From Escherichia coli 042 (GTDB taxonomy: Bacteria > Pseudomonadota > Gammaproteobacteria > Enterobacterales > Enterobacteriaceae), in the NCBI RefSeq assembly GCF_000027125.1, contig NC_017626.1: a DNA stretch of 64,000 nucleotides; one strand, written 5' to 3'. The translations under genes were made by a program, and so were the position numbers. The notes under the pieces were generated by a model. That model was not told where the DNA came from, made no database searches, and was given only the letters and a program-made list of their open reading frames with translations. Positions 19,901-31,564 of this stretch are shown piece by piece (the stretch's first letter is position 1; every line of letters starts with the position of its first letter).

Positions 19901-20236
19901 ACAAAAACCTTACATTAACGCTGGTTATGTTTAGGGTGGCGTATATTAAGGTTTTTTATGAATTGTGACAGCTTTTTACCATTAATAGGTATGACTATTG
20001 CGGCACGTTATTTTTACACTGGTTATAAAAGTTGCCGTTTGCGTAGAATGTAGACAAAAGCGTGGTGTCAAGGAGGGGCGGTAAACGTCATAGTGAAGAG
20101 GAGTGGTGGCACCGATCAGGTCATCATGTAGTGTAAGCGTCTGGAGGAGGTGAGCAGGGGAGATCATTTTCCCCGTGCTGAACAAAAAGACGGCGTTGCT
20201 GTGGGTACAGGAAGGCTAACTTCATTTCTCTTTAGA

Positions 20237-20773
20237 TTATTTAAGTTTAATATTCAACCAGGAAATAAAGAACGTTAAAATAACAAAGGAAAAAACAATC
20301 AAAGAGACATTCCTGAAAAATACGTGCTCATAAAAAAGATAAAAAACGTACAAAATTGGGCACGCAACTTTCAGGACGTTTATATGTTTAGAATTCTCTT
20401 TATCTTTAAAGTTAAAATTACATAAAAATATAAAGAAATATGAAAGCATGGCTGAAAACATCATTGATAAGGCGCGATATGGCAGTCCTGAATTAAAGGT
20501 TTCGACTCCTAATAATATTGTCGATAGCGTTGCAATTATAATTGCCACTTTTTTACTAGAGGTGAAAGTAACGACAAAAAATATCAATGATATAAATAAG
20601 AAAGAAAAAAATATGTAAATATTTGTTGATATATGTACTTTATGAGGAACTGTAAAATAGGTATAACTGATTGTAATTATGATGGTAATTATTCTGTATA
20701 GCATGCATGCTAACAGGCCAATCAGTAGTTTGTTCGCAAATTTATAAGGGGATTCGCTATTGGTTGATTGCAT
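20237..20773 (-). CDS. hypothetical multi-pass membrane protein (low GC, island-borne)
   Basis: 178 aa ORF dominated by I/L/F/V stretches consistent with ~5 TM helices; strongly AT-rich codon usage unlike flanking core genes. Confidence 0.6.
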   Translation of the reverse strand: MQSTNSESPYKFANKLLIGLLACMLYRIITIIITISYTYFTVPHKVHISTNIYIFFSFLFISLIFFVVTFTSSKKVAIIIATLSTILLGVETFNSGLPYRALSMMFSAMLSYFFIFLCNFNFKDKENSKHINVLKVACPILYVFYLFYEHVFFRNVSLIVFSFVILTFFISWLNIKLK

Positions 20774-20837
20774 GGTTATTATGCTCTTGAATTGTGTATT
20801 TTATTGGAATGTTTCTTGGTTAACTAAAACAATGCAT

Positions 20838-21266
20838 TTAATAGGTGGTGGTGTAAATATCAATGTCATACTCATTATCACAGACTACTATTACTCTACG
20901 AGTTATGTCAAAAAATAACGTTAAATCATAGGTTCCCTGTTCTCTGAAAATACTCTGCGCAAATGACGTGAAATTATTCCCATTTATAACTATTTTTACT
21001 TTACCTTCATAGATAAGCCAGCAACGAAAACATTCAGCTGTACCAGATAATGTCACTATCTGACTGATTAGAAGATTTATATTTACCGGATGAGGTAAAA
21101 AAAGTCTGTCGTTGAGGCAATCAATATTATGTGTTTGATGAAACTCTTTTCTCATTAATGAAGAGTTATCATATAGCAGGGTTATACTAAACGAGTCAAT
21201 TCCGTCAAGCTTTTGCATAAATTTGTTTGCTTTATAAATAAGCAACTTTGCTTGTGTTTTTGTCAT
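20838..21266 (-). CDS. hypothetical protein (island-borne, candidate orphan immunity protein)
   Basis: 142 aa ORF, AT-rich, tightly spaced with neighbours on the same strand. Confidence 0.5.
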   Translation of the reverse strand: MTKTQAKLLIYKANKFMQKLDGIDSFSITLLYDNSSLMRKEFHQTHNIDCLNDRLFLPHPVNINLLISQIVTLSGTAECFRCWLIYEGKVKIVINGNNFTSFAQSIFREQGTYDLTLFFDITRRVIVVCDNEYDIDIYTTTY

Positions 21267-21293
21267 GATGGTGATCTTTTATGCAAGGGGGAA

Positions 21294-21740
21294 TTATTGG
21301 AATTCAAATGTTTTATATTCCTCTGTAATCATCTTTAAACTTAACATAGCCATGTCTCGGGTATCTTCATCATCAGATTGTAGAGAAATATTTAATCCTT
21401 TAATTAAGGTGTTATCGGGAAAAGCCATTGCCAATAATGTATACCAACATCGGACACTTTTTATTGTCAGAGGATTTTCCAGTATGTTGGCGATATTTGA
21501 AGCTATAATGTTTTTATCACACTTGTACAAAAAATCTTCGACCAACTGATATACACCGAAGCCATCACCTTCCCCAAACGATTGTAAAAATAACGGTATG
21601 GCTTCTTCAGCAGGATTTGCAGAAAAATAAAGCCTTACATTGTTATATTTATTGATAAGTTCCTGAGTGATGTCATAATCATTTGGCATAGGTTGGTTTA
21701 GAGCAAGGAATGCTAATGCTTCTTTTTTAGTCATATTCAT
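21294..21740 (-). CDS. hypothetical protein (island-borne, candidate orphan immunity protein)
   Basis: 148 aa ORF, AT-rich, 27 bp from upstream and downstream ORFs. Confidence 0.5.
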   Translation of the reverse strand: MNMTKKEALAFLALNQPMPNDYDITQELINKYNNVRLYFSANPAEEAIPLFLQSFGEGDGFGVYQLVEDFLYKCDKNIIASNIANILENPLTIKSVRCWYTLLAMAFPDNTLIKGLNISLQSDDEDTRDMAMLSLKMITEEYKTFEFQ

Positions 21741-21767
21741 AATGGTTAATATTGCTTGCTGGAAGAA

Positions 21768-29240: not shown

Positions 29241-29719
29241 TCCAGCCAAACCTGATGATTAATTCGTTTATATATTCTTAACCCTCCCCCAATTGCATAG
29301 ACACTTGTTCCTACTCTGACTACCTTAATTATAGCTGTTCTCATGTCTGAGGATTTAGAAATAGGAATATCCAGATTATTTTCTCGTCCCTTGTATTCTC
29401 TGGTTTTGTAGCTTATGACTTCACAGTCGATATCAACTATAACTAATTCAGTTTGGGAAGGTGACCATCCAGCCGATATCGTTGGATAGCTCAAATTACC
29501 GAAAGACATCCCAAACACCCTGTTTTCAGGAGGGTTGTCAATAACTATTGATACCAGCTTGTGTTTAGGCATGTAATAGTCGTTGCCATATTCGATATGA
29601 TTTTCATCAATTTTTTCAATTAATAATAAGCCAACGCGGCCATGTTCAAAGCCATATGTACAATCATATACTTCAAAATTTTTAAAGGTTTTATCCCAAC
29701 GTTCTTGACTAATAATCAT
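28679..29719 (-). CDS. repeat-containing hypothetical protein, paralog A (beta-propeller-like repeats)
   Basis: 346 aa ORF; C-terminal ~185 aa identical to paralog B, N-terminal ~160 aa about half identical. Confidence 0.7.
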   Translation of the reverse strand: MIISQERWDKTFKNFEVYDCTYGFEHGRVGLLLIEKIDENHIEYGNDYYMPKHKLVSIVIDNPPENRVFGMSFGNLSYPTISAGWSPSQTELVIVDIDCEVISYKTREYKGRENNLDIPISKSSDMRTAIIKVVRVGTSVYAIGGGLRIYKRINHQVWLDASQTIPVPDGFLERKAESMSRSLFQDLSGFSESDMYAVGGTGTVYHFNGEQWKKLPFPTNKLLYTVCCAGDGFVYIADFDGAIWKGRNEQWTQITHGGMTMPFLDMGWFDGRLWCASDYGIWVLEDDKLVLAMHAKHKPVPPEVAVLSKRIDVSPDGTVMMVCGSRGAAIYDGNAWNVLFDSMAFE

Positions 29720-29758
29720 TTCATTTCCTTAGTTATCACAATTATCATCATAGCTATC

Positions 29759-30390
29759 TATAAACGTTAGTTTCCATAATATGCTATCCGTGTGCCCACT
29801 TTCCTTTAAATTAACTGCTGGCCCGGGAGGCTATTCAAACGCCATTGAATCAAAGAGGACATTCCAGGCATTACCATCATAAATAGCAGCTCCTCTGGAA
29901 CCACAAACCATCATCACGGTCCCATCGGGTGAAACATCAATTCTTTTACTTAAAACGGCCACTTCAGGAGGGACGGGTTTATGTTTTGCATGCATGGCAA
30001 GCACCAGTTTGTCATCTTCCAGCACCCAGATGCCATAATCACTGGCACACCAGAGACGTCCATCAAACCATCCCATGTCGAGGAATGGCATGGTCATTCC
30101 ACCATGCGTAATTTGTGTCCATTGTTCATTGCGACCCTTCCATATAGCACCGTCAAAATCAGCAATATAAACAAATCCGTCACCGGCACAGCAAACTGTG
30201 TACAGAAGTTTATTTGTCGGAAAAGGGAGTTGTTTCCATTGCTCACCATTAAAGTGATAAACCGTTCCCGTTCCGCCCACTGCATACATATCCGATTCGG
30301 AAAAACCAGATAAATCTCGGAATCGACTTCTGGTTATTGCTTCCACCTTCCTATCTAACAATCCATCGGGGACAGGCAGGTATGTAGAAT
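29759..30390 (-). repeat. direct repeat unit 2 (~630 bp): 3' half of paralog B plus downstream stub METNVYR-stop
   Basis: Matches 28609..29240; here the PAAR-like start is cut to a 7-codon stub before paralog A. Confidence 0.6.
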
Positions 30391-30871
30391 GTTCCCGCCA
30401 AATTTGGTGATCAACACGTTTGTATATTCTGAAACCACTACCGATAGCGTAAACACTGTTTTCAATTCGTACTACTTTTATTATAACGGAAAACATATCG
30501 ATAGAACCTGGTATGAGTATATTTATACTTTCTTCTACTCCTTTGTATACATCTTCTTTATAACTCATAACATCACGGTCCTGACTGACCATAACATATT
30601 CGGTCTGAGATGGGGGCCAACCAGAAGATATAGTCATCAGAGATATCCCTGTTGCGCGACGACCATATATGCGATATTTTTTGGAGAGGGTAAACGTAAT
30701 GGAAATTAATCTCTTTTCAGGTGGGTAAAAAGGGTTTTCATATTCGGCATGCTCCTCATCTACCACTTCAATCAATGAAAGACCTACTTTTCCATGCTCG
30801 TAACCATAGGTGCAGTCATATATATAAAAGCCTTTGAGATATTTCTGATACGATTCTATATCTATGATCAT
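29831..30871 (-). CDS. repeat-containing hypothetical protein, paralog B (beta-propeller-like repeats)
   Basis: 346 aa ORF; C-terminal half identical to paralog A. Confidence 0.7.
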   Translation of the reverse strand: MIIDIESYQKYLKGFYIYDCTYGYEHGKVGLSLIEVVDEEHAEYENPFYPPEKRLISITFTLSKKYRIYGRRATGISLMTISSGWPPSQTEYVMVSQDRDVMSYKEDVYKGVEESINILIPGSIDMFSVIIKVVRIENSVYAIGSGFRIYKRVDHQIWREHSTYLPVPDGLLDRKVEAITRSRFRDLSGFSESDMYAVGGTGTVYHFNGEQWKQLPFPTNKLLYTVCCAGDGFVYIADFDGAIWKGRNEQWTQITHGGMTMPFLDMGWFDGRLWCASDYGIWVLEDDKLVLAMHAKHKPVPPEVAVLSKRIDVSPDGTVMMVCGSRGAAIYDGNAWNVLFDSMAFE

Positions 30872-30896
30872 TTATCACCTCAAATATCTTCATCGT

Positions 30897-31196
30897 TTAT
30901 AACACCCCCATCACCTGCATTGATTTTTGCAGAGTTAAATCACCACAGGTATAAGCGTCTTGGTAAGCTTTATCCAGTTGCGCTTTCAAACAAGATTTAT
31001 CACAACCGTACATTAATGCAACCTCATCAATTACCATACATCTGGCATCTTTATAACTCATTTCTTTTCCAAAATGCTTTTCTTCTATTAGAGTGCCTGT
31101 AGCTGAGTGTAATGCACCATGTGAACCAGTACGATTGTCTTTTCCTTCCAGACAAATTGTAGGCGCTTTGCCTTCGGTATATTCCCCCCCCAGCAC
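30897..31196 (-). CDS. hypothetical protein fragment (99 aa), possible orphan toxin-tip remnant upstream of paralog B
   Basis: ORF with non-ATG start; G8 homopolymer (C8 on + strand ~31184-31191) at codons 3-5; stops in all frames further upstream. Confidence 0.3.
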   Translation of the reverse strand: MLGGEYTEGKAPTICLEGKDNRTGSHGALHSATGTLIEEKHFGKEMSYKDARCMVIDEVALMYGCDKSCLKAQLDKAYQDAYTCGDLTLQKSMQVMGVL

Positions 31197-31564
31197 TTTC
31201 TTGTTGGATATTTGCTACGGGGCATTCTTTATATTAATTTTTCTTCCTTATGGAGTATCTCTGTTTGACACTTTAAAGTCTCTATGAGAATTATAAGATT
31301 TTTTTTAAAATAATACGTTTTCAGATTTAGCAACAGGATTTTCACTCATACGATTAATATACGATATTTTAATCTCAAAAATATATTTGGCTGGTGAAGC
31401 TATCTGGGGTGTATATTCACACCACATATATTATCAAAAGGCAGTTACGCTACCGCCATACCCTGATAAAACTCACCATCTGCACGAAACGGATTTTACG
31501 CTTTTTCTTCCGGCGAAATATCAAATTCTCAATTCAAATAATATCTATTGCGTTATATGACCTA

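Follow-up and report, generated by a model that had tools for sequence, protein, structure and literature searches.

The nfrB-cusS islet of Escherichia coli 042: a probable degraded allele of a hypervariable type VI effector/immunity locus

The 64-kb stretch of the Escherichia coli 042 chromosome that we analysed (hereafter, the window) carries a variable islet between nfrB and cusS that has no counterpart in K-12 MG1655. [quoted passage not shown] The locus and its kind have been described before, and the present islet is one more allele of it.

The islet as a whole, taken without regard to strand, spans positions 20043-31586 of the window (11,544 bp). Blastn against the corresponding K-12 locus (L003) aligned window positions 19001-20042 and then 31587-32500, between which K-12 holds about 23-26 bp. 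An earlier reading of the bare sequence had taken nfrB and cusS to be adjacent in K-12, and in MG1655 they are indeed neighbours, separated by a spacer of 149 bp with none of the islet genes between them. The extra DNA that this sequence-only reading placed at 19901-31564 is thus real, but its true limits are those given above, and 19901-20042 belongs to the nfrB upstream region shared with K-12. The description of AT-rich minus-strand coding DNA unlike its flanks was borne out as well: the guanine-plus-cytosine (GC) content of the islet is 40.1% (38.8% once the IS elements are removed) versus 50.3% and 52.9% in the 10-kb flanks, and every open reading frame (ORF) assigned to the islet lies on the minus strand, so that transcription runs from cusS toward nfrB. 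Along a sliding window the GC fraction is 0.47-0.58 in nfrA/nfrB, sinks to 0.30-0.44 between about 20.0 and 31.5 kb and rises again to 0.49-0.56 in cusS/cusR; 500-bp windows reach a minimum of 30% inside the islet, where the only GC bumps are the IS elements. All elements previously listed from the sequence (two H-rpt copies, IS1, an Rhs remnant, toxin-tip fragments and immunity candidates) were found; a PAAR-like (DUF4150) N-terminal fragment at 28311-28625 had been overlooked.

The chromosomal site corresponds to Rhs 'position 4' of Jackson et al. (2009, BMC Genomics 10:584, Table 3; PMC2935791), the only rhs locus of E. coli that belongs to clade IV, which has displaced C-terminal tips downstream (PMC2935791). 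The islet agrees with this locus in its location between nfrB and cusS and in being transcribed in the same direction as cusS, and it likewise contains a displaced toxin tip with an immunity gene next to it, here the second half of a deaminase tip followed by a SUKH-3 gene. At the same site, strain SE11 carries the order cusS-vgrG-DcrB/Eag-Rhs(AHH)-immunity-orphan Rhs(zincin)-ISAs1-nfrB, which has only the two edges and the ISAs1 element in common with the window. The match to position 4 supports the initial proposal of a decayed Rhs or polymorphic-toxin locus, but the largest block of the islet, at 26.8-31.2 kb, does not come from Rhs. Among 5,426 complete E. coli genomes, a K-12-like empty junction is contiguous in 2,326 (about 43%), and the 116-bp edge of the islet on the nfrB side occurs in 947. 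The window's own allele, leaving aside IS1, is present at an identity of at least 99% in about 150 of these genomes (149 by a probe of the right-hand 4.8 kb, 151 by the left-hand 2.5 kb and 153 by the PAAR stub). One carrier is labelled 'O15:H18 strain ST69', and a 12.7-kb stretch of a draft assembly (L009) agrees with the window at 100.000% identity, IS1 aside. Two protein variants encoded in the window are exactly those of the E. coli 042 entries CBG33412 and CBG33419/EC042_0592.

The block next to cusS (31.25-26.77 kb) is, to judge from its homologies, the rearranged remnant of a Tse7-type T6SS auxiliary cluster and not of Rhs. Read from cusS, and on the minus strand like all islet features described below, it begins with the remnant of a C-terminal tip from a PAAR-like/Tox-GHH2 nuclease toxin (30897-31245; ORF 30897-31196, 99 aa), which matches the Pfam Tox-GHH2 model at E = 3.7e-6 over positions 31-120 of 122 and is 68% identical to a tip in Citrobacter koseri. 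A frameshift in a G-run parts this ORF from about 13 upstream homologous codons, and homology to the intact toxin of Escherichia whittamii begins at 31245, downstream of the GQTGHH motif of that toxin. Tox-GHH2 domains are defined by the motifs s[AGP]HH and HxxxH (Zhang et al. 2012). The intact relatives show GQTGHH and then HxxxH; in the window's tip the second motif is kept as HGALH, and the first, which lies upstream of the breakpoint, is missing.

The tip is followed by two intact genes for beta-propeller proteins of 346 aa each. The product of the first (29831-30871), a candidate immunity protein to a GHH2 nuclease, is 75% identical to its C. koseri homologue, whose gene lies directly downstream of the GHH2 tip, and 82% identical to its E. 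whittamii homologue, whose gene directly follows that of an intact PAAR-GHH2 toxin. The second (28679-29719) is a mosaic paralogue of the first and the counterpart of the second beta-propeller in the E. whittamii array. Behind it lies the PAAR-like (DUF4150) N-terminal stub (28311-28625; 104-aa ORF, Pfam Tox-PAAR-like E = 7e-11), whose residues 1-91 are homologous to full-length PAAR-GHH2 toxins, with 89% identity to the corresponding residues (1-91) of the C. koseri toxin of 538 aa and 94% nucleotide identity to E. whittamii. After residue 91 the ORF diverges, and it ends at 104 aa; the linker and toxin domain are deleted, leaving no complete PAAR-like domain fused to a toxin domain. A third beta-propeller gene (27269-28279), intact and divergent, starts 31 bp past the stub and encodes 336 aa with about 30% identity to proteins 1 and 2. 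The beta-propeller genes come after toxin remnants, in the position of immunity genes.

Toward the middle of the islet, the block continues with a C-terminal fragment of a TvpD or PA0098-type PRK06147 protein (26865-27176; 103-aa ORF with about 70 homologous residues), which is all that is left of the accessory set VgrG, DUF6484, DUF2169 and PRK06147 upstream of such toxins. The fragment matches NCBIfam PRK06147 at positions 272-344 of 349 (E = 1.6e-8, far under the curated cutoff), is 89% identical to the ORF that follows DUF2169 in C. koseri and shares 94% nucleotide identity with the 3' end of the 341-aa gene of E. whittamii. The last piece, detected by tblastn, is a scrap of a fourth beta-propeller of about 17 codons (26764-26814), cut by ISAs1 copy B; its similarity to C. 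koseri beta-propellers (70-80% over 15-17 aa) is weak and very short.

Two relatives allow these pieces to be placed. The C. koseri cluster runs VipA/B, Hcp, VgrG, DUF6484, DUF2169, a 92-aa ORF, a GHH2 tip, a beta-propeller, the 538-aa PAAR-like plus Tox-GHH2 toxin and a further beta-propeller, and the window's pieces match its genes one by one, with synteny at the protein level. E. whittamii (L024) possesses an intact array of DUF2169 (376 aa), TvpD-like (341 aa), PAAR-GHH2 (about 528 aa), beta-propeller, PAAR-GHH2 (532 aa) and beta-propeller, to which the window corresponds in separate pieces with nucleotide identities of 79-94%: 31245-29759 covers the final 124 or so codons of toxin 1 together with beta-propeller 1 (81%), 29758-28618 matches beta-propeller 2 (84%), 28626-28354 the first 91 toxin codons (94%) and 27128-26926 the 3' end of the TvpD-like gene (94%). 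In C. koseri (L006), a PAAR N-terminal match is found right after the TvpD-like ORF, at 8419-8691, and this cluster therefore also comprises two tandem toxin-immunity modules; its 'GHH2 fragment' (L006 8419-9991) is probably the 3' end of a first PAAR-GHH2 gene that is uncalled or disrupted.

A relic of the same block occurs elsewhere in the species. The 157 bp at window positions 26770-26926, which hold the end of the TvpD stub and the beta-propeller scrap, are also contiguous with ISAs1 (25971-26769) between yafT and yafV in E. coli B, at 92.7% identity, and about 2,500 complete E. coli genomes contain a 113-bp core of this relic. The recurrence of one IS-plus-relic junction at a second T6SS/Rhs hotspot suggests either exchange through ISAs1 or a shared ancestral relic.

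The middle block (26.77-22.55 kb) is genuinely Rhs-derived, with about half of the toxin domain lost, because in the nearest longer relatives of its deaminase tip (P0256, which is 75% identical, P0259 and P0261) this domain is preceded by Rhs YD repeats and the motif DPxGL. What the window retains is the C-terminal half of the tip (24527-24727; 66-aa ORF with the motifs CAE and PNCRNC and a weak Pfam YwqJ-deaminase match, E = 0.01), the N-terminal half having been lost at the boundary of ISAs1 copy B. A word-indexed search for the parent of this tip gave fragments only, and an exhaustive search gave Rhs-linked relatives of at most 75% identity. Next to the tip stands an intact gene for a SUKH-3 immunity protein of 153 aa (24063-24524; Pfam SUKH-3 E = 6e-12), which bears the same name in the Prokaryotic Genome Annotation Pipeline (PGAP) annotation of RefSeq genomes. 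It is followed by a fragment of about 70 aa from an Rhs YD-repeat shell (23776-24045), cut by ISAs1 copy A and recognised by phmmer against the PDB (Rhs family protein 7q97 at E = 1e-13, also Tse5 and the Salmonella bongori Rhs core) and, weakly, by the TIGR01643 YD-repeat model; it is 24-30% identical to the SE11 Rhs at the same site.

The two ISAs1/H-rpt copies bracket 860 bp, which hold these three pieces. Copy A (22551-23841; 1,291 bp) is assigned by its family transposase, intact with 378 aa (22561-23697; NCBIfam transpos_ISAs1 E = 8e-122; ISEc1 family by PGAP name). Copy B (24702-26769) consists of two pieces that are 96-98% identical to copy A, disrupted by an IS1, and is intact in strain AGR6137 (locus L002). 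The IS1 itself (25204-25971; 768 bp, with InsA/InsB ORFs and canonical ends) is flanked by a 9-bp target duplication, TGGATTATT, read directly at 25195-25203 and 25972-25980, and is found neither in L002 nor in L009.

The layer next to nfrB (22.55-20.04 kb) reads as old and common to the genus, because small genes of this set are found in Escherichia sp. E4736, in Escherichia albertii and in another E. coli, and a homologue in a toxin-less array of Hafnia alvei. From the ISAs1 end onward its first feature is what copy A has left of a 151-aa gene, a 3' remnant (22323-22550; 93% nucleotide identity to positions 9703-9930 of the E4736 locus, L016), followed by the pseudogene of a 181-aa small protein (21768-22313), in which 166 of 181 residues are identical to the intact homologue P0133 and a single in-frame stop takes the place of W81. 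Two intact genes follow, both candidate orphan immunity genes, encoding small proteins of 148 aa (21294-21740, proposed from context) and 142 aa (20838-21266, adjoining the 148-aa gene also in L016 and L017), and then a 178-aa multi-pass membrane protein with four or five hydrophobic segments (20237-20773). The latter is without PGAP annotation in RefSeq genomes and has a conserved 175-aa counterpart in cryptic Escherichia. Homologues of the 148-aa protein belong to toxin-less small-gene arrays in E. albertii (adjoining a CdiI_N gene), cryptic Escherichia and H. alvei; no Pfam or NCBIfam model matched the nfrB-proximal small proteins.

In E4736 the site reads, with genes given by the length of their products, cusS-158-151-181-148-142-175-nfrB, without IS or toxin, and its nucleotide identity to the window is 93-96% over 22550-19001 and also over 31355-32500. 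Relative to an islet of this type, 8.8 kb of the window (22551 to about 31354) replace about 0.9 kb, and the left breakpoint lies exactly at the ISAs1 end. E. albertii shows 181-141-CdiI_N-nfrB at the site, and another E. coli shows cusS-SUKH-181-143-ISAs1-nfrB. An origin from a contact-dependent inhibition system (CdiA/CdiB) was rejected: no scanned islet ORF matched a CdiA/CdiB family, the window holds no CdiA-sized ORF, and the CdiI_N gene is confined to the E. albertii allele.

This distribution bears on the direction of change at the site. The low GC content, the IS elements and the lack of the islet in K-12 would suit a horizontally acquired mobile island between nfrB and cusS, be it an integrative element, a prophage remnant or an anti-phage defence locus, but such an arrival is very unlikely when the nfrB-proximal genes sit at the same site in several Escherichia species and a boundary within cusS codons fits a deletion in K-12. 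We rejected a mobile or defence island also for want of an integrase, a tRNA gene and direct repeats at the islet ends, and PADLOC remained blank save for a weak BrxL match to the YD fragment, which is spurious; Rfam gave no match inside the islet. We infer that the adjacency of nfrB and cusS in K-12 is best read as a deletion, because most E. coli, the cryptic Escherichia clades and E. albertii, thus several species of the genus, have an occupied site and because the boundary lies inside cusS. The right boundary of the islet (31565-31590) falls within the final cusS codons, and CusS has 482 aa both here and in cryptic Escherichia versus 480 aa with a different tail in K-12, which is what a deletion in K-12 with formation of a new 3' end for the gene would leave. 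The earlier term 'accessory island' implies an insertion and is disfavoured in that sense.

The layering of the islet probably came about as follows. Tandem effector-immunity cassettes would have been displaced and reshuffled by recombination through conserved segments (the TvpD 3' end, the PAAR 5' end and the 3' half of the beta-propeller genes), and parts of the toxins would afterwards have been removed by IS-associated deletions. ISAs1 elements may then have joined the Rhs remnant to the PAAR-GHH2 array, with the insertion of IS1 as the presumed last event. The empty site of K-12 would represent deletion of the whole locus.

The gene content shows that the locus has no offensive capacity and cannot arm a T6SS, because all its toxins are cut short and not one VgrG, PAAR, Rhs or adaptor gene has survived whole. 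Homologues of VgrG, the Rhs core, Eag, DUF2169 and DUF6484 were not found in the 64-kb window, where SE11 Rhs, VgrG and Eag gave no tblastn match either; a linked vgrG and a gene for an Eag/DUF1795 chaperone are accordingly missing, and the YD fragment stands in place of a full-length Rhs core with its PxxxxDPxGL end. The sequence-only reading had noted the lack of any intact delivery gene, and this holds for VgrG and the Rhs core; CdiA was not searched for directly, but no ORF in the window exceeds 1,293 aa (51430-55311). Although no intact delivery gene is present, a truncated one is, in the form of the PAAR-like fragment with its 91 homologous residues. A DNA search of the complete E. coli genomes found no full-length PAAR-GHH2 relative: most islet-bearing genomes contain the truncated PAAR stub only, and nowhere was one third or more of a full-length toxin query covered.

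Displaced tips and immunity genes might also serve as a silent reservoir of cassettes, which could be transferred by recombination to a complete Rhs or PAAR gene at another place in the genome and switch its toxin type. Orphan Rhs tips in Salmonella have reportedly been shown to act as such recombination spares. Jackson et al. (2009; PMC2935791) read the displaced tips at nfrB/cusS in this manner, and past recombination is evident in the PAAR stub and in the mosaic pair of beta-propellers 1 and 2. In the present allele, however, the GHH2 tip is without its catalytic motif and frameshifted and the deaminase tip is without its N-terminal half, so that neither could restore an active toxin. Given also that no full-length PAAR-GHH2 partner turned up among the complete genomes, where the truncated stub prevails, and that the YD scrap is so distant from the SE11 Rhs at this site, we regard a reservoir function as highly improbable.

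More can be said of the beta-propeller proteins. None of the three matched a Pfam or NCBIfam family. An AlphaFold (AF2) model of protein 1 from an alignment of 50 sequences has a beta-propeller fold (mean predicted local distance difference test score, pLDDT, 93.9); its structural neighbours in the PDB are generic propellers only (RACK1, Gβ, Ycf48), and a profile search of PDB sequences with the family retrieved only designed propellers. A survey of one genome per species yielded 77 loci with homologues, mostly in Burkholderiales and with some in Enterobacterales, Pseudomonas, Marinomonas and myxobacteria. Using a GHH2 profile made from three toxins, we examined the 3 kb upstream of the beta-propeller at 74 of these loci and found a GHH2-like ORF at 44 of them (E 1e-9 to 1e-48), which in most cases stops no more than a few tens of bases from the beta-propeller start. 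The pairing also appears in the individual contexts of Pseudomonas sp. RIT-PI-AD and Azoarcus, and one homologue (P0074) forms a fusion with an SMI1_KNR4/SUKH domain. Taken as evidence from context, these findings speak strongly for a putative toxin-immunity pair. Zhang et al. (2012) noted that beta-propellers were not found among immunity proteins; consistently paired with Tox-GHH2 across proteobacteria, the family appears to be an unnamed candidate immunity family that can easily be tested. In Salmonella enterica (L023 8001-10882), an orphan homologue of 351 aa and 51% identity heads a toxin-less array, in which three small unannotated ORFs lie between metallophosphatase and AIR carboxylase genes, and which is itself a candidate orphan immunity islet.

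Within the window, beta-propellers 1 and 2 are about 52% identical over their N-terminal 180 aa, with saturated synonymous sites, and about 99% identical over their C-terminal 166 aa; in the two genes (28679-30871), identity is about 97-98% in the 3'-terminal 500 bp and in the spacer behind them, and substitutions have reached saturation in the 5' halves. This pattern points to gene conversion or to a mid-gene recombination joint.

The SUKH-3 gene and the three beta-propeller genes are intact immunity homologues whose cognate toxins are not intact in the locus. Orphan immunity conferred by the beta-propeller, SUKH-3 and small-ORF products is, we infer, the only plausible activity that the islet retains: these proteins could bind GHH2 DNases, deaminases and further toxins that Enterobacteriaceae competitors inject, and so neutralise them. 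The three beta-propeller genes in particular could form a maintained orphan-immunity battery against the Tse7-like PAAR-GHH2 DNases of other gut Enterobacteriaceae (Citrobacter, Salmonella and E. whittamii), with an experimentally uncharacterised fold whose N-terminal half sets the specificity and whose C-terminal half promotes recombination between paralogues; we put this forward tentatively, as a possibility short of an even chance. If orphan immunity is functional, lineages such as sequence type (ST) 69 and relatives of E. coli 042 would resist T6SS nucleases of other enterobacteria.

It is quite possible, on the other hand, that the islet is purely a genomic fossil, neutral and decaying DNA in which ORFs are intact since its degradation is recent and the carrier lineage young, because the carriers are nearly clonal at the locus (at least 99% identical) and one small gene is already dead. 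All toxins are truncated, IS elements have inserted three times, the 181-aa gene carries a nonsense mutation and the GHH2 tip a frameshift, and 43% of the complete genomes have the K-12-like empty junction. Such neutral decay is harder to reconcile with the fact that three ORFs, each about 1 kb long, and several others with 140-150 codons have stayed open while each adjacent toxin ORF is broken, or with the retention of the same small genes at the site in E. coli, the cryptic clades and E. albertii; the orphan beta-propeller homologues in toxin-less Salmonella arrays likewise suggest retention for their own sake.

Several further points weigh against a maintained immunity function. The 148-, 142- and 178-aa proteins match no known immunity family and were assigned by context only. 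As to Tsi7 of Pseudomonas aeruginosa, the experimentally studied GHH2 immunity protein, none of the 80 loci kept from our genome scan for beta-propeller homologues was a P. aeruginosa locus, and we found no description of the Tsi7 fold in the literature. The ratio of nonsynonymous to synonymous substitutions (dN/dS) between beta-propeller and C. koseri orthologue is low, about 0.09-0.10 (about 0.09 for protein 1), and with the intact ORFs it speaks for constraint on the immunity candidates, but it arose mostly while the genes were still linked to toxins, and within E. coli the near identity of the carriers means that the intactness of the ORFs may reflect recent shared ancestry, not selection. 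The state of the 181-aa gene indicates that decay is ongoing. Cognate toxins are possible elsewhere in this genome, of which the toxin search covered 64 kb. Lastly, the AT-rich DNA of the islet may be silenced. A promoter and terminator scan gave no usable signal, with fewer promoter-like sites than in shuffled controls.

Two features of the window lie outside the islet. Rfam reported two tandem matches to sok, the antitoxin RNA of hok/sok, on the plus strand at 45808-45964 and 46312-46466 (82-84 bits, about 500 bp apart). On the nfrB side, an envY-sized ORF (253 aa; region 12747-13630) stands almost directly behind a tRNA gene (12747-12820), and ORFs of the sizes of ybcH, nfrA and nfrB come next. 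In K-12, the 21-kb DLP12 prophage ends just upstream of envY; judged by ORF sizes and synteny, strain 042 appears to be without this prophage near envY.

As one more allele of a published hypervariable T6SS/Rhs hotspot, the islet matters little beyond bookkeeping. What our analysis adds, namely the Tse7-type origin of the largest block, the pairing of beta-propeller and GHH2 proteins and the likely ancestral occupancy of the site, are refinements and not surprises. Since the locus mixes two types of T6SS cargo, Rhs and PAAR-like/GHH2, an annotation as nothing more than an Rhs relic would be wrong. With position 4 of Jackson and co-workers it shares the chromosomal site and orientation, an AT-rich tail of dissociated tips and small downstream genes, and the association with H-rpt/ISAs1. 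SE11 represents the intact form, whereas the window is without rhs core, vgrG and Eag gene; its Rhs content amounts to the deaminase half-tip and a 70-aa YD scrap distant from the SE11 Rhs, and most of its unique sequence derives from a non-Rhs PAAR-like/GHH2 system.

The model for that second system is the vgrG1b cluster of P. aeruginosa (PA0095-PA0100), which encodes VgrG1b, DUF6484, DUF2169/TvpA, PRK06147/TvpD, Tse7 and Tsi7 and has been described as a Class II Tvp system (PMC13373197, PMC9846239); its PRK06147 protein PA0098 is TvpD (PMC13373197), and Tse7 is a DNase effector composed of PAAR-like and Tox-GHH2 domains (PMC13373197, PMC9846239). Intact relatives in E. whittamii, C. koseri and Azoarcus have the same domain set and gene order. 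The window resembles this cluster in keeping pieces of TvpD, PAAR-like and Tox-GHH2 and a gene in immunity position after each toxin, but differs in that these pieces are stubs and that catalytic GHH, VgrG, DUF6484 and DUF2169 are absent.

In its present state the islet also resembles the yegQ islet of Salmonella Typhi (Barretto and Fowler 2020, PMC7400221), which is likewise AT-rich, lineage-restricted and about 8-12 kb long. Both combine small uncharacterised ORFs, immunity domains and Rhs/PAAR fragments, vary between strains and contain no cognate toxins; by analogy with the orphan immunity proposed for S. Typhi, the islet of strain 042 may have a defensive capacity, protection being putative in both. 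The two differ in their genes and in their site, and in that toxin remnants are still present in the window, which makes an origin by decay of effector-immunity arrays directly visible.

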